Source of the DNA: a virus | Lineage: Duplodnaviria; Caudoviricetes | Virus record (IMG/VR): IMGVR_UViG_2821731843_000002 | DNA: 64,000 nt | Direction: 5' to 3' (one strand) | Shown: positions 16,414-43,060 of the stretch, piece after piece | Layout: each line of letters opens with the position of its first letter | Position numbering within the stretch: position 1 is the stretch's first letter | Program-made: the position numbers and the translations under genes | Notes under the pieces: generated by a model | What the model was told of the DNA's origin: nothing | The model's database searches: none | The model's input: the letters and a program-made list of their open reading frames with translations, nothing else

Positions 16414-16488
16414 TGGTTGCGGAGGCGGGATTTGAACCCGCGACCTCCAGCTTATGAGGCTGGCGAGCTACCGCTGCTCTACTCCGCT
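16414..16488 (-). tRNA. tRNA-Met(CAU), initiator-like but atypical
   Basis: 75-nt cloverleaf AGCGGAG-TA-GAGC-AGCGGTA-GCTC-G-CCAGC-CTCATAA-GCTGG-AGGTC-GCGGG-TTCAAAT-CCCGC-CTCCGCA-A-CCA, with encoded CCA. Confidence 0.92.
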
Positions 16489-28935: not shown

Positions 28936-29804
28936 GTGACCTCCTCCCCCTGGACATAGACAACACGGCCCTCGTTCGGGTCGACCACGACGGGAAGACG
29001 TTTAATCGTTGGGGGCAGCGGGCCTGTGTCGCGCACCAGGTGGTAGCGAACCGATTGCGCCGAGGTGCGGCCCCGGCGGCTGTCTTTCAGATACCCGGCT
29101 TTTTCCAATGTCGAGCAGTAACTGCGGATGCCCTTTTCTGAGAACTCGCCTTCAAACCCGGCAAAGGTCATCAGCATGTCCTCAACGGTGAACTTGTTCG
29201 CAGCCCGCATTGCCGTCCAAATCCGGCCTTCCGTGGACAGACGTTTGTCCTTGGCCCGGTTCATGATTTCCAAGGTCGAGAACGCGGTATAGTAGGGCTT
29301 GCCATTGTCATAACCGGCAGATCTCAGCAGGCCGGCGTTTTCCAGGGACCTCAAAAACAATGTGGTCTTGTTATCCGGGGCGATTTTCTGCGCCAGGACA
29401 AGATCGCGGGTGAACCGGAGCTGCTGGCGCACAAAATCCCAAAGCTTTTTCTCTTCTGGCGTTTGCGGCGTCCAGGCCTGCACGGGCAGGGCCGTGTCCT
29501 GGAATGCGGAAATCTTGGAACCCAGCCTGTCAGAGCGCCATTGCGCATCCATAGCGCTGGTATCAATCAAAGCTGCATCGCCCGATAGGCTGGCCGGATC
29601 TTGCGCGGTGTAATAGCGAATGTTGCCCTTGCGCTGATAGAGTTTGACCAGGTTCAGGCGGGCCAGACTACGCAGGTAGTTGGTCCGCTTCCAATCCCCG
29701 GCAGCACAGAAGGCATCGACATCAGCGTGGGTGAACACCTGGCGCGATTGGATGAATTGCCAGATTTCCTGCTCATGTGCCCCGGATGGGGCGTGTGCGC
29801 TCAT
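28920..29804 (-). CDS. Hypothetical winged-helix-repeat protein downstream of B
   Basis: 294 aa with three similar wHTH-like units (YLRSLARLNL, FLRSLENAGL, YCSTLEKAGY). Confidence 0.7.
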   Translation of the reverse strand: MSAHAPSGAHEQEIWQFIQSRQVFTHADVDAFCAAGDWKRTNYLRSLARLNLVKLYQRKGNIRYYTAQDPASLSGDAALIDTSAMDAQWRSDRLGSKISAFQDTALPVQAWTPQTPEEKKLWDFVRQQLRFTRDLVLAQKIAPDNKTTLFLRSLENAGLLRSAGYDNGKPYYTAFSTLEIMNRAKDKRLSTEGRIWTAMRAANKFTVEDMLMTFAGFEGEFSEKGIRSYCSTLEKAGYLKDSRRGRTSAQSVRYHLVRDTGPLPPTIKRLPVVVDPNEGRVVYVQGEEVTWATS

Positions 29805-30543
29805 AGGGCACCCCCAACCGCTAGAAACTCATTCCCGGCGGGAAAGGGTTCCTTGCCCCAGTCCTTTAGGGTGACTTTCTGCATGTTCCAGGTGCGGGCC
29901 ATGGTTCTGACATGGGCGATGCAGGTGCAAATCTCGCGCACCTTGCCACGTCTTTCCGAGACAATATGCTCCAGCAAATCTGGGGAGATTTCAACGCCAC
30001 GGCCATAATACCCCGCAAGGGATTGGGCATCGTCCAGACTAGCCGGGTGAGCCGTGACCCGCTGCATGACACGGCTGGCGATGGCAGTGTATTTGGCCAG
30101 TTTCGCCGGGAAGTCATAAGGGCCAATCAGGATCAGCGGCACGTCTGAGCGGTCATGCAAGAACCGGATACTGTCAATCATCCGGGGTTTCAGGGCGTGG
30201 TCGGCCTCGTCAATGACCAGGGTGCGCCCAGCCTGGGCCAGGCTTTCCTGGGCGCGCATTTCCAGATAGGCGGTGGAGCCTTTCTCGCGGGCCCCAGCTC
30301 GTTCAGGATCTTCTCAAACAGGAACTTACTGGTGTAATTGTTGGTCAGCTGAATATGCAGGATATCCTGGTGCGCCGAGGCAAACATTGCGGCATGGGTT
30401 TTGCCCACTCCGGGTTCGCCGTGAAGGACACCGATGCCGGGCAGGCCTATGTCACGGTTTTCCAGCGTCTCTATCAGCGAGGCCAATAGGTAAACATTGG
30501 TGAGCGGCTTTACATATTCGCCGAGTTTTGTTCTCTGTAACAT
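29801..30543 (-). pseudogene. Transposition AAA+ ATPase (MuB-like), split by one 1-bp deletion
   Basis: Walker A GEPGVGKT in 30190-30543 and Walker B LVIDEAD in 29801-30259. The frames join if one C is restored in GGGCCCGCGAG near 30290. May be an assembly error. Confidence 0.85.
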
Positions 30544-30591: not shown

Positions 30592-32719
30592 TCAACCGGC
30601 GTCGTCCCGTTTGGCAAATTCTTCTACTTTCTGAAAACCGCGATACTCGGGCAGCTCGATGTAGCTGCGCAGCCAATCGGCCTCGCCACTGCCAACCCGT
30701 TTCCCGGCGTCTGATTTCGCGATGATGTCTTTGGCGTCTTGGAACCGCTCTTTGGGGGTTGAAGCGGGTTGAAACCGCCCAACGGCCTTGGGTTTTGGAT
30801 CTAATTTCGCCTTGTCCTTCACCCGCTGCTCGAAGGCTTGCCGCGCCTCAACCACTACTGGATCTGACGTGACCTGATGGCGAGGAACCGACACGGTCTT
30901 TTGCTGAAAACCGGTTTCACAACCTTGGCTTCAACCAATTCCGATTGCGTCGCCGCTCGGGCGGTCCTGTCGGCGGCAATCTCTTGAACGGACAGAGGGC
31001 GGTGGGCCTTCAGAAGCTCCTTTTGTGCTCTCTTGATCCTGTGATTACGGCGTTCAACTTCCTTGGCCCCGGTAACGTTGAAGAACCCGACTGTTTGCCG
31101 ACATTCGGCAAATCCGAGGTAAGACCCGTCGAGCTCGTAGATATGAACACCGGAATGCAGATCCTCTGGATCAAATCGGGCCACAATCTTTTGCCAGCCC
31201 GCTCAGACATCCAGTCTGAATGATAGAAGTTCCTGAACAGTTGGAGCTGGCCGTTGTCCTTGTTCAGCTTGCCGGTCTCTTGACCCATCAGCCAAAGGCG
31301 ACGTTGATCCTCGGTTGCCTTGCGGATAGGGGCTGTGGCGTAGCTCTCCGCAAATGTCTCGTCGAAGGATCGCCCCCGTGCAGTAGGGGACAATCGGCCC
31401 TCGCGTAAATTGTGCTCCTCAACTCCTTCAGCCACAACCTTCACAAAATCGTCTAGAGGGATCGCACGATTGCCGTAGTTTTCGGGTTTGGCATCTGGAC
31501 GGTTGCCAGTATAAGCGCCGTCAAAGCGGGGTCTAAAGCGATGTCCTTTGCAAAATCCCGGAACCCACGTTCAATCGGTTTAGATTGGCCACTTGCGGGC
31601 TTGGCCCAGTGAACTTGAATGCCCAGATTGGGAAGCACACCAAGGGGATCGTCTTTGCGCACCTTAAAGCGAAAGCGGTTCGGAATGCCGCCGGTGAGCC
31701 ATTTACCGGTAAACTCCCGTCCGTTGTCGAACAGGCAATGGCTAGGATGCCCCAGGTTTCGACCAATTCGCCAAAGGCGGCCATGACCATTACCATGTTG
31801 GGTGAATGATCGATGCGCCAGCTCAACATCTTGCCGGAATAGAGATCCTGGAAGGCAACGATCTGGGGCCTGTTTATGGTGCCGTCGGGCCAGCGCACGA
31901 AGACGTCAAACTTGTGGCAATCGGCGTTAACGCCTTCGAGCGCCGTCAGGGTGGTACGGTCCCGGATCTGCGCCGGAAAACAGCGCAACAAGCCCGCAAA
32001 ACCTTCACGGGCCAACACTTGGCAAAGGCGCGGTACTTCATCGTCCAATCGCCGCTTTGCAGTCTTGCTGATCAGGATGTCCCAACCCTCATGCTTGGCT
32101 TTTTGCAGGCAGCGCGATAGCATTGGGCAAATGTTGGTGGTCCTTGGCGCAGATAATCGCTTGTTAAATAGTCCATAAACGCTTGGGTGCAGGCCGCCTT
32201 ATTGGGCTTGCGAACAGCCAAACGGTTACGCGGCACCAGATAGGCCAGGCGGTCCTCAGGGGCGACGCCTTCAACCATGCCGATCCAGTTGTAGACACTG
32301 CGGGCAGAGGAGCCACATTGGCGCGCGGCCTCGGCCACGGCGTGAACATGGGTAACGCCGGACTGGTGCAGACCTTCCACCATTTGCAGCGCAGCCAGCC
32401 GGGTTCTAGCCTTGGTCTTTGCAGTTTCCGGCAGGCTATCAAATGCGGCCCAGGCATTGCCCCGGTCCGGGCGTTCGTCAGGGGTCTCAGCGGCATCTGT
32501 CAGCAGCTTGCGCCGTGCTGCTAAGGGCAACACCGACCAGTGATATATCCAGCCGCCACCGCGTCCAACCTTGCGCTTGGCGCAGCCTTCAATGGCGCGC
32601 CAGCCGAACCGCTGTGCCAGCAGGTTTATGCCTGGTTTGCTGCCCGGCAGTTCGGGCAGGCCAGAGTTGGCCAGCTCTTCAACTGTCCACCAGATCTGTT
32701 TGGGTTCAACGACGCTCAT
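30592..32719 (-). pseudogene. DDE transposase (MuA-like), split into six frames by five 1-bp deletions
   Basis: N-terminal Mu-type DNA-binding domain (WWTVEELA...FGW), catalytic segments NADCHKFDV, LFDNGREF and KPIERGFRD. Breaks near 32117, 31748, 31528, 31190 and 30900. May be assembly errors. Confidence 0.9.
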
Positions 32720-32723
32720 TTGG

Positions 32724-33632
32724 TCACCCCGCCCGTTTGCTGGTGAAGGGGACGATTTCGGCATCTGTTTCCAGGGCTTCGTCGCTAACGACTAGGGCGT
32801 CTTTGCCCAGTAGCTCCAGCAGCTCGTCGCGGTGATCCTCGGCAAACCTCCGCCGGGCTTCTTTTGGGGCCCGTGAATAGGCGTCGTTTAGTTTTCTGCG
32901 CGCTGCCTCAACCGGGTCTTTAACTGCAGTTCCGGGGGATTTCTTACGGGCCAGAACTTCCTTGGCGGATTTGGCGGTGCCATCGCCCAGGGCGCGACAA
33001 ATGTCATACCGATCCGTTGTTGTTCCGCACTTGGCTATCTCTTGCAGGTCGGAAAGGGAGACCCGCTTAGGAGCGTCTCGGAGTTCTTGGATTTCACGGG
33101 GGCCAAGGGACCGGCCCGCAGCAACAAGGCGGCGAACTGTGCGCTCGTCGACGCCCATTTTGTCGGCTGTTGCGGTTACAAATGATACGACGGACATGTT
33201 GTCCGCCGTATCCCAACGTTTTGCGACCAAGTCTGCCCCGGTTGCTGCTTTTGTCTCAGGATAGGCCCGTTCATACACTTCTTTGCGACGGGCAAGGAAT
33301 ACTGCCAAATCCAAAGTGTTAAGTTCGGCATGTGCCAGGTTGTCGTCGATCTCGGCGAGGTCTGCCCAGTCGTCTGTGCAATCCCAGACCTTGGCGGGGA
33401 TTACATCGCGACCCAGGGCGCGAAACGCTGCCATCCGGTGACCGCCGGCAATCAGCCGTAGCTTGCCGGTTTTCTTGACTTTGCGGACTTGGATCTCGGA
33501 CATCAGACCTTGGGTCTCAATCGAGTGTGTCAGGCTTTTAACAGCCGTTTCAGACACCGGGCGCAGTCGGTTTGATGTGTCGATGTCATCAAGCGGGATT
33601 TCTGTAACTTCAATCAGGCGTGGGGGACGCAT
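32724..33632 (-). CDS. ParB N-terminal domain protein
   Basis: RLRPVS...SIETQGL...LIAGGHRMAA...AEIDDNL, followed by an HTH (TADKMGVDERTVRR). Confidence 0.85.
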   Translation of the reverse strand: MRPPRLIEVTEIPLDDIDTSNRLRPVSETAVKSLTHSIETQGLMSEIQVRKVKKTGKLRLIAGGHRMAAFRALGRDVIPAKVWDCTDDWADLAEIDDNLAHAELNTLDLAVFLARRKEVYERAYPETKAATGADLVAKRWDTADNMSVVSFVTATADKMGVDERTVRRLVAAGRSLGPREIQELRDAPKRVSLSDLQEIAKCGTTTDRYDICRALGDGTAKSAKEVLARKKSPGTAVKDPVEAARRKLNDAYSRAPKEARRRFAEDHRDELLELLGKDALVVSDEALETDAEIVPFTSKRAG

Positions 33633-34087: not shown

Positions 34088-34365
34088 CGAAAAATGTCTC
34101 CTGCTAAAAGTCCAATAATGAGTGTTATGAAAAGTGAGGCTGCGCCGAGGATCTCGCCGAGCCAGAAAAGGGCGGTGCCAAACCAAGCGCGTCGGCCCCA
34201 GCGTCTCTGCAGTAATGTGCAATGGCTGGGGCCCGTCTCCGCGAGTGTTGGGCAAGAATACAAAGCCCCCAGTGGCGCATCCCCATGGCCACCGGGAGAG
34301 TTGTCCAACCGGGCCCGAGCAGGAGCGTGGTTGGATTGGGAGTGAGTGTGAAAGGCATTTAGCAT
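34084..34365 (-). CDS. Hypothetical early protein with C-terminal hydrophobic segment
   Basis: 93 aa, overlapping both neighbours. Confidence 0.5.
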   Translation of the reverse strand: MLNAFHTHSQSNHAPARARLDNSPGGHGDAPLGALYSCPTLAETGPSHCTLLQRRWGRRAWFGTALFWLGEILGAASLFITLIIGLLAGDIFR

Positions 34366-34730
34366 TGGGCAGCACTCCTGGCGCTACGTTGGCTAGGTCG
34401 CCGACCAAGAGAGAGCGCCACTCGTTGGCGCTTGGGGCCGTGAAGCTCTTCAACATAGCCGCCATTCGACTTTAGGTGCGGCAGTACGTCGTGCTCTGGG
34501 GCGTCTACTTGATACCCAAGCGTGTGCAGGACGAGGCGAATAACTAACACAGATGGGTTTGCATCTTTGCCTTTGGCATCTTTGTCGTTTGCAAGGCGCC
34601 TTAAGTGCCTGCCAGTTATCCCACAGGACCGACCGAGCTCCTCATATGAAAGCTTTCCGAGCCCTTTGTTCTGGGCAGCGACTTCTTCACGTAAGAAGGC
34701 CGCGAATTGTTGTCCGCTCATTTGAGGCAT
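34359..34730 (-). CDS. Cro/Ner-like XRE HTH regulator, first early gene
   Basis: LSYEELGRSCGITGRHLRRL...NPSV. Divergent from the repressor. Confidence 0.75.
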   Translation of the reverse strand: MPQMSGQQFAAFLREEVAAQNKGLGKLSYEELGRSCGITGRHLRRLANDKDAKGKDANPSVLVIRLVLHTLGYQVDAPEHDVLPHLKSNGGYVEELHGPKRQRVALSLGRRPSQRSARSAAQC

Positions 34731-34762
34731 CTTTGGGTCCGCTATCTTCGGTTTGATATGTC

Positions 34763-34793
34763 TGAACGTTAGAAGTAAACTTCTATCAGTTCA
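34763..34793. promoter_or_regulatory. Candidate operator in the divergent switch region
   Basis: Palindrome TAGAAGT-aa-ACTTCTA (34770-34785) nested in TGAAC...GTTCA, with an extra ACTTCTA half-site at 34822-34828. Confidence 0.6.
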
Positions 34794-34890: not shown

Positions 34891-35250
34891 ATGTATGTTG
34901 AGGCCATGATTGGTGCACTCGATAAAAAACAACCCACTAAAAATGGGGAGGTGGAGCTCTGGAGAAAGCGCCTGCGTCAGGCGTTGGAAGTTCGGGGTTT
35001 GGATTTTGACGAAGTGTCTGAAGCTGCTGATTGTAATCGGGAATATGTATCAAAAATGCTTGCGGGTCGGTTTAATCCGACTGTCGCGCGGCTGATGAGA
35101 ATTTGTGACGCCGGAAAGATAGATATGGCGTATCTGTTTTCTGAAGAGCCGAGCGAAGAGGAGCGTAATGTTCTTGAAAAGGCTGCAAACTTGTCCAAGG
35201 ACGATGCTGAGCTAGTCAGCCGGCTCATTAAGAGCGCCAGATCGAATTAA
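34891..35250 (+). CDS. Prophage repressor, XRE HTH without a peptidase S24 domain
   Basis: RLRQALEVRGLDFDEVSEAADCNREYVSKMLAGRFNPTV. 119 aa, divergent from the early operon. Confidence 0.8.
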   Translation: MYVEAMIGALDKKQPTKNGEVELWRKRLRQALEVRGLDFDEVSEAADCNREYVSKMLAGRFNPTVARLMRICDAGKIDMAYLFSEEPSEEERNVLEKAANLSKDDAELVSRLIKSARSN

Positions 35251-35373
35251 TTCGACCTTCCTAATGGCTTCTTTGAATATTTCTGTGCCTAAACGTGGCG
35301 ACTCCCGGTTGGCCTTGATTACCTGGTTCATGATTTTTTCTAAAATGTCTGCCGTCACTTGATGCTGTTTCAT
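35212..35373 (-). CDS. Small ORF (53 aa), divergent from luxR and convergent with the repressor
   Basis: MKQHQVTADILEKIMNQVIKANRESPRLGTEIFKEAIRKVELIRSGALNEPAD, amphipathic and helical. Overlaps the repressor 3' end by 39 bp. Confidence 0.5.
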   Translation of the reverse strand: MKQHQVTADILEKIMNQVIKANRESPRLGTEIFKEAIRKVELIRSGALNEPAD

Positions 35374-35392
35374 AATTCGACCTAATATTGGC

Positions 35393-35408
35393 TTATCACT
35401 TGTGATAA
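35393..35408. promoter_or_regulatory. Palindrome between the small ORF and luxR
   Basis: TTATCAC-tt-GTGATAA with perfect 7-bp arms. Confidence 0.55.
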
Positions 35409-35452
35409 TCGTATAAAGCGATAGTATCGAGAGCATTACATATCAAACGTGT

Positions 35453-36085
35453 GTGTCCAATATGAAAAGTGATATAAAAAGTTTTCTATTCAGAACTCTG
35501 GAAGAACTGTCAGACGGCGGTTATTCAGTGGGTGTTGGTTTCCAAGGAGTGGAACCGCATTTCGTCAAGTCGACCTATTCGTCAGATTGGGTTGAACGAT
35601 ACATCGAACAAAACTTCATTAAACAAGACCCAACAATTCAGTTTGGTCTATCCAGGTCAGCCTACGCTACTTGGGAAGACCTAGAGAAATTGTACCCAGA
35701 TTCGAAAGGCTTTTTCGCTGAGGCAAGGGCGTTTGGTTTGCTACGGGGCAATACCCTATCAGTATGTGTTAGAGGGCAAGTTTCAATTCTCAGTTGCTCT
35801 GGGGCACACTGGGACGATGCTGTATTGCGTACCGCAAGTGCGGCCCTTTACGGCTTGGCAGTATTGGTTGCGGACGTAGACACCAACAAATATGACCCGT
35901 TGTCTCCTCGCGAGAAGGAAGTTCTCAACCTCATGACTACCGGGTCGAAGGACCAAGAGATTGCGAACATCTTGAAAATTAAAGTTGAAACTGTCCGCGC
36001 TCGAAGACGAAGCGCCTTCCTGGCAACCAACACGACTACGATTGGCCAACTTATGTCAGAAGTGATAAAAAAGGACCTCATTTAG
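35453..36085 (+). CDS. luxR: LuxR-family AHL receptor / transcription factor
   Basis: Autoinducer-pocket pattern W-x3-Y-x8-DP (WVERYIEQNFIKQDP), a later W (ATW) and G. C-terminal HTH LSPREKEVL...EIANIL.IKVETVR. Confidence 0.92.
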   Translation: MSNMKSDIKSFLFRTLEELSDGGYSVGVGFQGVEPHFVKSTYSSDWVERYIEQNFIKQDPTIQFGLSRSAYATWEDLEKLYPDSKGFFAEARAFGLLRGNTLSVCVRGQVSILSCSGAHWDDAVLRTASAALYGLAVLVADVDTNKYDPLSPREKEVLNLMTTGSKDQEIANILKIKVETVRARRRSAFLATNTTTIGQLMSEVIKKDLI

Positions 36086-36146
36086 GAGTTCTTTGTTTCC
36101 AAAAGAGTGATGGTCCACAAAATGGCGCTGCAAGTTGGAGAGCGCC

Positions 36147-36830
36147 ATGCGATTACACACATTTTCATTTCTAGATCAATATCATCACGGTTCCATTTTT
36201 TCTGATTATCTCGCTTTGAGATATAGGGCATTGGTCAGAAAATTAGGCTGGGACCTGTCACATGATGGATCGGTGGAAATGGATCAGTATGATCATCCAG
36301 GTGCAGTATTCTCGGTCGTTACTTATCAGGGCAAAGTGATCGGTGGAGCGCGTGCATTGCCGTGTAGCGCTTCATGGGGAGGTTGGTCCTATATGCTGAA
36401 AGATGCATCATTGGGTAAGCTTGGACGAATACCAAATGATCTATTGTCCGAGTATCCCAACGCTGGCCATACGTGGGAAGGTACTCGCCTGGTAATGGAC
36501 GAGACAGTTGAGTCGGCACAGGTCCGCCTGATGGCAATACGGTTGGTTGTGTTTGGGCTCTGCAAGTTGGCCAGTAAAGGTGGTGCTGAAACAATAATCT
36601 CTTTGTCTCCTTCACCATTTGGCCGGTTGTTGGGGGTTATGGGGTATACAGCAGTGCCAATTGGTCGGGAATACATCGGCGAGGAAGACAGTCTATCATA
36701 CCGCGCCTTTTCAATGCCGTGCAATCCGCTGATAAATGCGGATGTATGCGCAGGGCTCGAAGTTATATCTGCTCGGTCTGAACAGCTCTTTATCCCTGGA
36801 GGAGAGGTCACCTACCTGCAGAGAGTTTGA
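36147..36830 (+). CDS. luxI: Acyl-homoserine-lactone synthase
   Basis: LRYRALVRKLGW, EMDQYD, GGARALP and WEGTRL are LuxI-family conserved blocks. ATG at 36147 after GGAG. Confidence 0.92.
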   Translation: MRLHTFSFLDQYHHGSIFSDYLALRYRALVRKLGWDLSHDGSVEMDQYDHPGAVFSVVTYQGKVIGGARALPCSASWGGWSYMLKDASLGKLGRIPNDLLSEYPNAGHTWEGTRLVMDETVESAQVRLMAIRLVVFGLCKLASKGGAETIISLSPSPFGRLLGVMGYTAVPIGREYIGEEDSLSYRAFSMPCNPLINADVCAGLEVISARSEQLFIPGGEVTYLQRV

Positions 36831-37121
36831 AACGGTACTCTCCCATAAATGTCGAGAGCGGCCCTGACCTGCCGTTTGTGCCATATCCGTCTAACGGCAG
36901 TTCCCAGCCCATAGCAGTCATTGTTTTTCGGCACATCGGGCGGACGCCGCCGTTCGCTGCAAGTGCAGTGTTTTTTGGACAGCGCCGCAGAAGCAGCCAC
37001 TCACACTATTTTTTTTGGAGCACGTGAAAGCAGCTCTCTTTGCAAGAACTTCAATCGCTTTCCTGAAAGCTTTAGCTTTAAGGCATTTTTCCGTGTTGCC
37101 TTAATCTAGATGATTTGCGAA

Positions 37122-38831
37122 TTAATCTTCTGAGAGTGGATTAACTTTGAAGCGTCTTTCATCCGGCGAATTCCCTGTTTCGTTTGAGTAAGTTTTTATG
37201 AACTCACGCGTATCTCCGTCGTATGTAATGCTACCATGCAGACAGACGCTTGCAACCTTGGGGCTTTTCACTCTCATTCTCTCAAAATGTCTTCGTGTCC
37301 AATCAAGCACGGCTAGTCTGAGGGGGTTTTCTTGTTTGCCATAATTCTTATGCCGTTGATCATTCAGACCCAGAACGTTGAGGCAGAATCCTAAGTAGCT
37401 AGCGCCTTTGAAGTTGTAGAATTCATCCATTCGGCGAATTTCTTGGTAGATTAACCTTGCTACCCTACGATGTATCCATTTGCTGGTTTTGCTTTCGTTG
37501 AAATGAAAAAGCCGACTCCAAACTGTGTTGTGAGTGACGCTCCAACAAATATCGACGGGCTTTCGCACTTGAGATGCTTTGAAGATCAGATCAAATATGA
37601 GGTCCGCGAGGCGTTCATGGAAGCCGTTATTAAATGTGTCTTCTGGTTTGAGTGAAGACCAGATCTCGACGTCCTTGTCGTCAAGAAGTTTCATTAGTGC
37701 ACGCAAAAAATCCACAAGTACAATGAGTCTGGCGTGTTCGTCACGCTGGTAGTATCGACTGTCATCGTCGTTAAGGTTGTAAAGATCGTGGACCATGCTT
37801 TTACAGTTTTCCAAGATTTGGTTCACAGCGAAGCTATCCATGCCATCTAAGCCGTGTGGCGACTCTCCCAACAGGCGCTCAATGTATAGGAGGCTGACGC
37901 GCGTATAAGCTTTCCAATTTTCCGCATCCCATTCGTCACGAATATTGTAGCGTGGGTCCAATGGTGAACTGTGTCTATTTGACAGTGACCGGATCAGCTT
38001 GGGGTTGGCGAAAATTGCGGAGCTGTAGAGCTGGACGTAACCGGACCAACCGGAATCCCAACCACTATCTTCATGGAATATGGGGGAAGTTTTGCAGCTC
38101 AGAAATTCAACGGAGACATTTTGTGCAAATGTATGAAATGAAATTCCCGCCTTATCCTGTGCTGAGACTTCATTAAAAATTGCCTCTGCTGTGTTTGGTG
38201 CAAAGCACGCCATTTCTGCACATACCCTACGATTTGCAAGCAACAACAAAAAATCATGAGCGATTTGTTCGGTTCGGCTCAAATTCCACGGCGTTCCTTT
38301 CTCATTTGGGGGAACCGGTGCAAACTTAATCAAGCTATGTGCCGAGCGTGCTAATTCATGCAGCGCAATCCTTAGCTCTGTGTCACCTTCATGGTGAGTC
38401 GCTCGTTGGTAGAACCAAAAGAACCGGCGGCTGTTCCAACGTGAAAACTTCGGGGGGCGGATATATGAGACGAATACCCAATAGAGTATTGCTAATACGC
38501 AGGGTGCGAGCAGGAAAGAGTCAATTACAAGGCGGTCGTCCATCACAGGCAACAACGGCCAGCCGTTGTAGAACCACACCTCAGCTAGCAATTTCAGTAC
38601 AAAAACTGCCACGAAGAGCCAGAAGCTAAGTTGATAGACAGGTATTGGAGCGAGTGAGAGTCGCAATTTGTTTCTATAGTCCGATATGGTGTATATCACC
38701 AAAAGTAACGCAAGCGCAGATAGATAATCTGAAACGCCAAAAAGTGACTCTGAACCAGATGATCCGGCGGCAACCCAGCATACCTCAAACTCGTAGTATG
38801 CGTCCTTTAAAATCTCTTTGCAGGTCTGCAA
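37122..38831 (-). CDS. Large accessory protein with N-terminal TM helices and a soluble domain
   Basis: 569 aa, AT-richer than the core. About three hydrophobic segments in the first 125 aa. No family recognised. Confidence 0.75.
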   Translation of the reverse strand: MQTCKEILKDAYYEFEVCWVAAGSSGSESLFGVSDYLSALALLLVIYTISDYRNKLRLSLAPIPVYQLSFWLFVAVFVLKLLAEVWFYNGWPLLPVMDDRLVIDSFLLAPCVLAILYWVFVSYIRPPKFSRWNSRRFFWFYQRATHHEGDTELRIALHELARSAHSLIKFAPVPPNEKGTPWNLSRTEQIAHDFLLLLANRRVCAEMACFAPNTAEAIFNEVSAQDKAGISFHTFAQNVSVEFLSCKTSPIFHEDSGWDSGWSGYVQLYSSAIFANPKLIRSLSNRHSSPLDPRYNIRDEWDAENWKAYTRVSLLYIERLLGESPHGLDGMDSFAVNQILENCKSMVHDLYNLNDDDSRYYQRDEHARLIVLVDFLRALMKLLDDKDVEIWSSLKPEDTFNNGFHERLADLIFDLIFKASQVRKPVDICWSVTHNTVWSRLFHFNESKTSKWIHRRVARLIYQEIRRMDEFYNFKGASYLGFCLNVLGLNDQRHKNYGKQENPLRLAVLDWTRRHFERMRVKSPKVASVCLHGSITYDGDTREFIKTYSNETGNSPDERRFKVNPLSED

Positions 38832-39121
38832 TAGCCAACCCCTAATTGCTTACAATGATCATCTGGCACAATAACCTATGTTTCTTCTGCACGACATGAC
38901 ATTTGTAGTGTTCCGTTGTTACGGGTCTCGTACTTAAACAATGATGTTGCGCGATGGGCGAATGGCTAGTCTTGTGAAGTTTCACCGCAGCATCAGATCG
39001 GTCAGCAAAAGGTAAGTATGAACCGTCCGCTCGACTTTGCAAAGTGCTCTATCTGCGCATAGCTGTCCTTGGAGCCGATGGCAGCGAATGGCCGCATAAT
39101 GTTATGGTTCCCCCTAATATC

Positions 39122-39524
39122 GCTTTCTAGTTCCAGCATTAGAAATGGCGTACTAAATTTCCCTACCGCCATGATTTAAAACAACCTTTCTATATCTAGA
39201 AAGTCGTCACCGAACAAAAAAGGCGACTTTCTAGTTCCAAGGTGCAAAAGTCGCTGTAATTATGAGCGTTTGAAGTATCGGAGAAGGGCACTAGCCTTAT
39301 TATTATGGCGCTCTGGGACGCTGGTGGAATTTGCAGAGTTTGGTGTCCCAATATCGGCCTATTGGCGTTTAAAGCCTGTTTTGAGCCTTTTTGAAAGACA
39401 CGCGTCCAATCTGCCCTGGTCACGCTCGGTTGCCTCAAACGCCCTTGTTTTTAAGACTCTATCCGGCTTCTTCCGCCATCTTCCGGGCTCTTCCGGTTAC
39501 TGCAATAACAAGTGTCCAACAACA
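39122..39524. repeat. P1 left end (403-bp repeat, copy 2)
   Basis: Minus strand starts TGTTGTTGGACAC. GGACA-N7-(T/C)TGCA sites at 39501-39517 and 39332-39348, and TCCG at a 10-bp period (39462, 39472, 39482, 39492). Confidence 0.92.
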
Positions 39525-39529
39525 AGCGC
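39525..39529. repeat. 5-bp target-site duplication AGCGC, left-end side of P1
   Basis: Matches 802-806. Confidence 0.9.
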
Positions 39530-39540
39530 TGAGACATCTT

Positions 39541-42558: not shown

Positions 42559-42755
42559 GTGTTCACCACCTTGCAGCGGTGCCCGTGGCCGGTCAGCTGT
42601 TCAAATAGGGATTTCTGCGCCGGTTCGTCCTGGACCAGGACAATGACGCCGAACTGCTGTTTATAGCGGTTCCCCTTGGGTATTCCGTGGGTTCCCGGCG
42701 GTAGCGGGGGCAGGTTGATTTCTTCGGATTTGGCCACTGGAGCCTTCCTTTCCAT
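42555..42755 (-). CDS. Small protein heading the modification cassette
   Basis: 66 aa from ATG 42755, or 60 aa from GTG 42737. QFGVIVLVQDE...LFEQL...CKVV. ATGA overlap with the ATPase-GNAT gene. Confidence 0.7.
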   Translation of the reverse strand: MERKAPVAKSEEINLPPLPPGTHGIPKGNRYKQQFGVIVLVQDEPAQKSLFEQLTGHGHRCKVVNT

Positions 42756-42915
42756 CGCGCTCCTGGCGCTTGGATAAAGGGCTCTGTTGTGGCCTCAAAT
42801 GATTGTGTGCCTTGCATCTTGGGCACTTGATGTTGAGCGCGCCGTTTAGGGCATCACTCTCTATTTTAAATAGCAGTCGGGCACATTGGCCGCAACGCTG
42901 GTCTTGCATGGACAA
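42661..42915 (-). CDS. com: Com-family zinc-finger regulator (P2' copy, longer C-terminus)
   Basis: First ~57 aa almost identical to 2565-2753. Confidence 0.85.
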   Translation of the reverse strand: MSMQDQRCGQCARLLFKIESDALNGALNIKCPRCKAHNHLRPQQSPLSKRQERDGKEGSSGQIRRNQPAPATAGNPRNTQGEPL

Positions 42916-43060
42916 GTGGAATCACCTCAGAAAGGCCACACCCTCGCGAGGGGTGGGAGCGGCCATGAGGAAATGCTGGTCGGCGGGGTTTAGTGTGAAT
43001 ATTAGTCCCCGTGTTAAGGAGTGTTACAGCACCCCTTAGCCTCCCTGTAAGGAGGCGTTA
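42749..43060. repeat. com module, copy 2
   Basis: Near-identical to 2587-2899. Confidence 0.95.

Follow-up and report, generated by a model that had tools for sequence, protein, structure and literature searches.

The closest described relatives of the system considered here are found in Phaeobacter inhibens T5, which carries a Mu-family prophage (Phage A) and a myovirus (Phage B) (Bunsick et al., bioRxiv 10.64898/2026.07.02.736140, 3 July 2026). Both phages bear a four-gene module in which a counter-oriented hth is followed by xre-luxR-luxI, and their LuxI proteins make distinct homoserine lactones (HSLs). LuxR together with HSL activates the xre-luxR-luxI promoter and holds lysogeny, with a further requirement for XRE in Phage A, and inhibition of phage quorum sensing (QS) results in lysis; the HSL of Phage A also activates PgaR of the host. 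Among 93 Roseobacter prophages the same preprint (10.64898/2026.07.02.736140) counts 53 with such modules, swapped as cassettes, and it draws the parallel with arbitrium itself; Parasedimentitalea marina W43 is in its supplementary list of multi-luxI genomes and its prophage table holds no Parasedimentitalea. Here we describe P1, a prophage of a marine Roseobacter-group bacterium within a 64,000-nucleotide stretch of DNA (IMG/VR record IMGVR_UViG_2821731843_000002, referred to as the window), and propose, at a probability of roughly 75%, that its immunity region is a QS switch of this Roseobacter-prophage hth / xre-luxR-luxI type. We make this assignment because the prophage has conserved termini and target-site duplications, its LuxR and LuxI are intact, the gene order is syntenic in more than 12 loci, and experiments in P. 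inhibens show what such a module does.

Like the two T5 phages, P1 has a Roseobacter-group host, is a Mu-type transposable prophage (Phage A being of the Mu family) and carries hth counter to xre-luxR-luxI; as in those phages, no cI/Cro or Ner/C homologue is recognised, the module is exchangeable among close phages, and a host luxI is present. P1 differs from them in its Parasedimentitalea-like genus, its distinct LuxI family, a LuxR that is 49% identical to that of the nearest P. inhibens module, a transposase that is out of frame as assembled, and a function that is predicted from sequence. The XRE-LuxR/smORF modules of Aeromonas phages ARM81ld and Apop and the TF-smORF modules of Vibrio (Silpe et al., 10.1101/2022.09.16.508337) resemble P1 in placing a phage xre beside luxR, near parB, with a domain-less open reading frame (ORF) of about 50-60 aa divergent from the regulator. 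Unlike P1, however, the Aeromonas and Vibrio phages lack luxI and listen in on the C4-HSL of the host, HSL induces their lysis, their small ORF (smORF) lies upstream of xre-luxR, and they are linear and plasmid-like with a separate cI. Arbitrium, the AimR/AimP/AimX system of SPbeta-group Bacillus phages, likewise uses a phage-made signal that reports prior infections and favours lysogeny, but its signal is a peptide, its receptor a TPR protein and its output the AimX RNA, with no sequence or fold relationship to P1; no gene for an AimR TPR receptor or an AimP propeptide is found in the P1 switch, whose receptor is LuxR-type. By analogy, then, P1 would work like arbitrium in its logic and is not a member of that system. 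Finally, P1 shares with the immunity region of phage Mu (c, ner) the position at the left end, the divergent repressor and early promoters and the lack of an autocleavage domain in the repressor. It departs from Mu in its xre, whose helix-turn-helix (HTH) is of Cro/C1 type and not the c-type (MuA-like) DNA-binding domain, in its hth, for which no similarity to Ner was detected, and in the 4.3 kb of extra genes that separate the repressor from the left end.

The switch module of P1

The module lies 2.7 kb from the left end of P1 and has the following parts.

34359 to 34730, minus strand: hth, which opens the early (lytic) operon, counter-oriented to and divergent from xre, in the Ner/Cro position
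34770 to 34785: perfect 7-2-7 palindrome in the hth-xre divergent promoter region, with an extra TTCTA half-site downstream
34891 to 35250, plus strand: xre, a Cro/C1-type HTH repressor of 119 aa
35212 to 35373, minus strand: smORF of 53 aa between xre and luxR; it converges on xre, with 39 bp of 3' overlap, and diverges from luxR
35393 to 35408: perfect palindrome TTATCAC-TT-GTGATAA (7-2-7) between the smORF and luxR, a candidate LuxR box
35462 to 36085, plus strand: luxR, predicted acyl-homoserine lactone (AHL) receptor and transcription factor of 207 aa, with a probable ATG at 35462 (the ORF opens with GTG at 35453, 210 aa)
36147 to 36830, plus strand: luxI, predicted AHL synthase of 227 aa, with a probable ATG at 36147 (the ORF opens with TTG at 36135, 231 aa)

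XRE matches the Pfam domains HTH_3, HTH_26 and HTH_31 and PHROG 3, 'transcriptional repressor' (2.8e-11; alignment A3), and in Pfam it shows these HTH domains alone, with no S24 or peptidase domain. The product of hth has no match in Pfam, PHROG or a PDB sequence search and is 51%, 49%, 74%, 42% and 47% identical to its counterparts in relatives. The palindrome at 34770-34785 overlaps the -10 element of a sigma-70-like match on the plus strand (34753-34781, found by consensus scan), and half-sites of the TTCTA type stand at the equivalent place in relatives. The luxR ORF begins 203 bp past the xre stop codon on the same strand. In these respects the anatomy agrees with an earlier note on this DNA, which had described an HTH-only repressor without S24, a luxR some 200 bp behind it on its strand, a LuxR and a LuxI that keep the residues diagnostic of their families, and both palindromes, each of which proves to be a perfect 7-2-7 repeat.

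LuxR and LuxI

LuxR combines an N-terminal Autoind_bind domain (PF03472, 1.6e-14) with a C-terminal GerE HTH (PF00196, 1e-8), and its PDB sequence matches are CviR, RhlR, TraR and SdiA. The near-invariant pattern of the family, in TraR, is W57, Y61, D70, P71, W85, G113, E178, L182 and G188, and all nine of these residues are present in the P1 protein, as W43, Y47, D56, P57, W71, G96, E151, L155 and G161. In alignment A4 the first six of these and G161 are invariant and E151 varies in relatives. We thus read LuxR as a probable AHL receptor, predicted to bind both an AHL and a DNA dyad.

LuxI matches Autoind_synth (PF00765) at 28.0 bits against a cut-off of 24, and at 27.2 bits in the genome scan; it also matches TofI (4.3e-8, phmmer) and PHROG 31881 (2.7e-21). 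The diagnostic residues in LuxI reference numbering are R25, F29, W35, E44, D46, D49, R70, E101, S103 and R104. Nine of the ten are kept in the P1 protein (R25, W35, E44, D46, D49, R69, E111, T113, R114), and these nine are invariant in 12 homologues (alignment A1); the tenth, F29, is replaced by leucine at a position that is variable in the clade. The AlphaFold model of LuxI (predicted local distance difference test, pLDDT, 82.5) has AHL synthases as all of its top 10 PDB matches (MesI, RpaI, TofI, LasI and BjaI among them, E ~1e-11), with generic GNATs five orders of magnitude behind at ~1e-6. Sequence and model together point to an AHL synthase variant of the GNAT fold, and AHL production is predicted. 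A scan of IMG/VR with the LuxI alignment found no relative, and a phage-genome collection yielded a single match, a lasI of 24% identity from the record of an Acinetobacter phage. The genome holds two further luxI genes (C1:443662-444781 and C1:3043043-3043624), one with an adjacent luxR, so that cross-talk between host and phage signals, as in P. inhibens, is possible.

Extent and termini of P1

Positions are given in window coordinates, and those below 1 or above 64,000 lie outside the window.

807 to 39524, minus strand: prophage P1, a Mu-like myovirus of 38.7 kb, delimited by termini common to sister prophages and by a 5-bp duplication
802 to 806: right-end copy of the target-site duplication AGCGC, immediately before the conserved TG terminus at 807
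807 to 870: right-end terminal sequence of about 62 bp, beginning TGTAGCCGGACAG, with copies in sister prophages
39033 to 39524: left-end unit of P1, closing ...GTGTCCAACAACA, with copies at 351-790 (left end of sister prophage P0), at 93342-93823 and in the Parasedimentitalea huanghaiensis genome (G001)
39525 to 39529: left-end copy of AGCGC, abutting the left end at 39524

Most genes of P1 are on the minus strand; the Mu 'right end' is position 807 and the 'left end' position 39524. The right end opens TGTAGCCGG, a terminus common to sister prophages at -36208 and 1050794 (reverse), and copies of the right-end unit that are 94-98% identical are present at -36269, -36208 and 1050742-1050805 (reverse), and the G001 prophage has another at its own right end. 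The left-end unit, of some 440-490 bp, stops sharply at ...CCAACAACA in three copies of the same genome (790, 39524 and 93823) and in G001, and two partial copies depart a few bases short of this boundary. Compared with each other, the two termini of P1 are related as an imperfect inverted repeat, agreeing at 22 of 40 positions and with TGT....GGACA in common. Both P1 and P0 thus have the 5'-TG...CA-3' ends and the 5-bp duplication of a non-specific target (AGCGC and TTTGG, respectively) that are expected of Mu-like insertion. With 239 occurrences in the window, AGCGC by itself would carry no weight; what makes the match significant is that conservation among sister prophages fixes the ends independently, and a matching 5-mer is then expected by chance about once in 500 to once in 1000. 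As the right end at 807 and the next left end at 39524 are both flanked by AGCGC, P1 spans 807-39524, and luxR-luxI reside within it, 2.7 kb from its left end, as the earlier note had claimed.

Other candidate boundaries were rejected. A phage end directly after the repressor or luxI is excluded, as no terminus is kept there between P1 and the G001 prophage; the 61-bp conserved segment at 36850-36910 belongs to a repeat family scattered in genomes of the genus; and a 12-bp inverted match of 291-302 with 36964-36975 is at chance level, its right arm being the T-run of a terminator-like hairpin. The repeats of ~440 and 62 bp were taken for Mu ends and not for a site-specific att site, given the TG/CA termini, their inverted-repeat relation and the two different 5-bp duplications.

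Relatives of the module

The source genome is complete, comprises 5.08 Mb in five replicons, and has Parasedimentitalea huanghaiensis as its closest named relative in the genus. The earlier note had suggested a search of other prophages for the order repressor-smORF-luxR-luxI, and the same five-gene order, hth(-) / xre(+), convergent with smORF(-) / luxR(+) luxI(+), is indeed present in more than 12 Roseobacter-group loci, of which at least 4 adjoin genes for MuA, MuB and ParB. In Parasedimentitalea huanghaiensis the locus matches P1 colinearly over the interval between DUF3164 and luxI (nucleotide identity ~68-84%), strain M382 has the module beside an apparently intact Mu-like early region (MuA, MuB, GemA), and in Phaeobacter sp. 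SH40 and one metagenome-assembled genome (MAG) hth / xre-luxR-luxI adjoins ParB, MuA and MuB. Five Leisingera species and Falsiruegeria also show the order xre-smORF-luxR-luxI, and P. inhibens 2.10 retains it in a remnant. P1 LuxR is 49% identical to a cluster from many P. inhibens strains that is set in an hth-xre-smORF-luxR-luxI remnant, and P1 LuxI is 51-53% identical to proteins of Phaeobacter spp. The linkage xre-smORF-luxR-luxI is kept across genera and at 40-75% protein divergence, yet the cargo beyond luxI is variable; the cargo changes and the QS unit stays. In Leisingera aquaemixtae the module is flanked by host-like genes directly after luxI and by uninformative ORFs before xre. In MAG DT_103 (L012:10127-11130, the same as L020) the 3' end of luxR and luxI are fused to a piece of the DUF3164 gene, through a deletion that takes out the whole early region and the switch and spares luxI.

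The same architecture in the P. inhibens T5 phages supports, by analogy, the proposal of the earlier note that P1 may make and sense its own AHL as a census of lysogens in the manner of arbitrium. The alternative raised in that note, a rewiring of host QS, has its parallel in P. inhibens, where a Phage A HSL acts on the host's PgaR. The novelty which that note implied does not hold, as Bunsick et al. (10.64898/2026.07.02.736140) had already shown that such a module sets the lysis-lysogeny choice. The P1 module is not the first of its kind, and a phage AHL switch has been demonstrated experimentally in related phages.

The antisense smORF and the luxR-specific palindrome

In 12 of 12 modules examined, the smORF position is occupied by an ORF of 53-62 aa that follows a common sequence pattern, and gene callers annotated it in two public contigs. 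It is predicted to form a two-helix hairpin (pLDDT 77) and has no match in Pfam, PHROG, PADLOC or the ESM Atlas. The sister prophage P4, which carries hth (59% identical to that of P1) and xre (43%) and no luxRI, has a homologous smORF (L039:345-494, plus strand; hhalign 97.6%). The smORF is therefore part of the basic switch and not an addition that came with QS.

The palindrome at 35393-35408 behaves differently. It is exact or near-exact in most luxR-bearing modules and was not found upstream of the smORF in P4 and P0, both of which are without luxR; this restriction to luxR modules makes it the best candidate for a LuxR box. Its centre lies 61 nt before the luxR ATG and 27.5 nt before the smORF ATG. 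The first spacing would suit activation of luxR-luxI and the second would suit occlusion of the smORF promoter, a reading we infer from the geometry. Neither the antisense smORF nor the luxR-specific palindrome is mentioned by Bunsick et al. (bioRxiv 10.64898/2026.07.02.736140).

A model for the P1 switch

We propose the following model, which draws on the P. inhibens work for its general course. In the lysogen the xre-luxR-luxI transcript would be made and LuxI would release an AHL. LuxR bound to AHL, probably together with XRE, would sustain the same transcript in a positive feedback that keeps the counter-oriented hth and early transposition operon off, and the level of signal would report the number of neighbours already carrying the phage. 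Should the signal be lost or antagonised, hth would be expressed, followed by MuA/MuB replication and lysis. To this course we add a part suggested by the anatomy of P1. LuxR would act at the palindrome 35393-35408, where the distance of 61 nt to luxR fits an activator and the overlap with the smORF promoter, 27.5 nt before its ATG, would allow LuxR-AHL to boost luxR-luxI and shut off the smORF in one step. The smORF product may be a small antagonist of the XRE repressor, and read-through from xre would be antisense to it. Tentatively, the smORF could then be a conserved fifth component and the true link between QS and immunity, silenced by LuxR-AHL and by antisense read-through from xre, and free, once the signal drops, to antagonise XRE and release the transposition operon; we regard this extension as possible and would not press it.

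Several points weigh against assigning P1 to this switch type. The system is known here from its sequence and predicted structures alone, and the homology was compared with P. inhibens strains other than T5. The Pfam score of LuxI is barely over its threshold (28 versus 24). The luxR-specific palindrome is downstream of xre, whereas the LuxR-dependent promoter of the preprint is upstream of xre, and the roles we give to the palindrome and the smORF derive from geometry and analogy alone. Finally, the transposase and MuB of P1 are out of frame as assembled; if the same holds in the phage itself, the switch has lost the means of driving replication.

The transposition genes and alternative explanations

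The last of these points leads to the most serious alternative, for which the two genes concerned have to be described.

29801 to 30543, minus strand: MuB-like AAA ATPase, with halves of AAA_22 in two frames and one -1 frameshift (C5 to C4 at 30291)
30592 to 32764, minus strand: MuA-type DDE transposase, with pieces of HTH_Tnp_Mu_1/2 and DDE_2 across frames and five -1 frameshifts

On this alternative, which we consider unlikely but deserving of weight, P1 is decaying and no longer replicates, and its QS module is kept for the benefit of the host or of resident phages, filling a signal 'niche' that locks incoming kin into lysogeny or feeding host QS, and not for its own induction. The six frameshifts in the two transposition genes are what it would predict, P0 and P2 each have one broken transposition gene, and luxRI modules persist in the remnants of P. 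inhibens 2.10, Leisingera thetidis and MAG DT_103; Bunsick et al. (bioRxiv 10.64898/2026.07.02.736140) report the same pattern and speculate on such a use. The nature of the lesions argues otherwise. The P1 transposase gene falls into six frame segments, with lesions at 30898, 31188, 31527, 31744 and 32099, and differs from the open 734-codon (stop-to-stop) copy in P0 by five single-base deletions and 0 substitutions over the 2.2 kb of tnpA; all six P1 lesions, the five in MuA and the one in MuB, are single-base deletions in homopolymer runs. Five frameshifts without a single substitution would be hard to obtain by neutral decay, and this suggests consensus errors in a repeated region. Identical homopolymer contexts in P0 are read correctly, so that real slippage mutations in P1 are still conceivable. 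The open copies among the sisters are tnpA in P0 and muB in P2; P2 tnpA has a stop, and P0 has the same MuB lesion as P1. The large head, tail and lysis ORFs of P1 that were examined are all open, and its termini and duplication are intact, both of which count against decay.

The reading of P1 as a lysogeny-holding switch has also to be set against a circuit of opposite sign, in which LuxR-AHL would activate the divergent smORF, the latter would act as an antirepressor against XRE, and high AHL would lead to lysis as in the plasmid-like phages of Aeromonas and Vibrio. The conserved 53-aa ORF divergent from luxR across the palindrome invites such a circuit, and there is a precedent in smORFs of 156-183 nt that are activated by XRE-LuxR with C4-HSL and inactivate cI (Silpe et al., 10.1101/2022.09.16.508337). 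We find it improbable, as the palindrome centre at 27.5 nt from the smORF start is too close for an activator site at -42 and better placed for occlusion, and the smORF accompanies xre in P4 without any luxR. Furthermore, in both P. inhibens phages HSL leads to lysogeny and QS inhibition to lysis, and a signal made by the phage itself would make every dense culture of lysogens self-destruct.

That luxR-luxI is passive cargo (a moron) altering host physiology alone, with its proximity to the repressor incidental, is highly improbable: although the pair sits in a low-GC (guanine-cytosine) accessory arm among other cargo, the host offers two other luxI genes as possible signalling partners and the HSL of Phage A activates host QS in P. 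inhibens, cargo beyond luxI varies freely while xre-smORF-luxR-luxI stays linked across genera and even in remnants, and the switch function has been shown experimentally for the same architecture.

Sister prophages

The sister prophages of this genome have transposase genes that are 94-99.8% identical and switch modules that differ, and the switch cassette is therefore exchangeable. The upstream sister P0 extends from -36208 to 790 and is flanked by TTTGG. The insertion sites of P0 (at TTTGG) and P1 (at AGCGC) both lie no more than 72 bp from the right terminus of a third sister, P2 (positions 791-806, 39525 onward and -36269 to -36209), whose body resumes at 39530; no match was found for the outer duplication of P2 (TTGAG versus TTAGC). 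Such nesting beside a Mu-type end runs counter to Mu target immunity, which would predict the opposite. In Parasedimentitalea huanghaiensis (G001), the left end of the luxRI prophage is likewise 4 bp from the right end of another. Both P0 and P2 have extended stretches of host-like genes, for ABC transporters and regulators, between the switch region and the next left-end unit (-9024 to -193 and 82452-93109). The nested insertion of sister prophages is not mentioned by Bunsick et al. (bioRxiv 10.64898/2026.07.02.736140).

Other features of P1 and the window

Pfam matches identify the Mu-type head and the early and late genes of P1 (Portal_Mu, Phage_Mu_F, the Mu-like_Pro protease I, Mu-like_gpT and Phage_Mu_Gp27, together with GemA, Mor and DUF3164) and its virion and lysis genes (TerL, sheath, baseplate J, tape measure, GH108 endolysin and holin). 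Further features are as follows.

32724 to 33632, minus strand: early protein with a ParB_N domain (Pfam), syntenic in all Mu-type relatives
36850 to 36910: copy of a short hairpin repeat family dispersed in genomes of this genus
36955 to 36976, plus strand: terminator-like hairpin with T-run, 125 bp 3' of luxI, found by consensus scan alone
37122 to 38831, minus strand: orf569, a low-GC cargo gene between luxI and the left end, matching PHROG 25374 (function unknown) at 2.7e-49

No match to orf569 was found in Pfam or PADLOC, and a PADLOC search gave none for orf262 and orf235. The slot between luxI and the left end differs by relative, being occupied by orf569 in P1 (37122-38831), by SLATT_5 and a reverse transcriptase in one relative (L015:11132-13065) and by a 1201-aa SIR2_2 protein in another (L017:11544-15149), and it looks like a hot spot for defence genes. 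Two related short repeat families, represented at 36850-36910, 212-267 and 39033-39088 and including the hairpin family CTGCCGTT...AACGGCAG, have dozens of copies in this and other genomes of the genus, some within prophage arms. A tRNA-Met (CAT) gene (16414-16488, minus strand) stands in the P1 head operon directly after the major capsid gene. Towards the other phage end, segment 2587-2899 is 95-99% identical to 42749-43060 and may be a com-like module, as we read a small ORF with four cysteines at about 2587-2760; downstream of it are a DNA methyltransferase in P1 and a pair of ATPase-GNAT and formyltransferase genes in P2. By its sequence, the flank of this com-like segment appears to be a second exchangeable cassette at the end opposite to the switch.

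Implications

The finished genome, the precise Mu ends and the target duplications prove that the QS pair of P1 is phage DNA, and P1 would add another genus to those in which phages keep an AHL census of their own. The smORF and the luxR-specific palindrome represent two concrete and testable additions to the published circuit. Finally, a single locus holding three nested sisters with different switch cassettes, together with P4 elsewhere in the genome without luxRI, provides a natural comparison set for what a QS cassette contributes to a phage.

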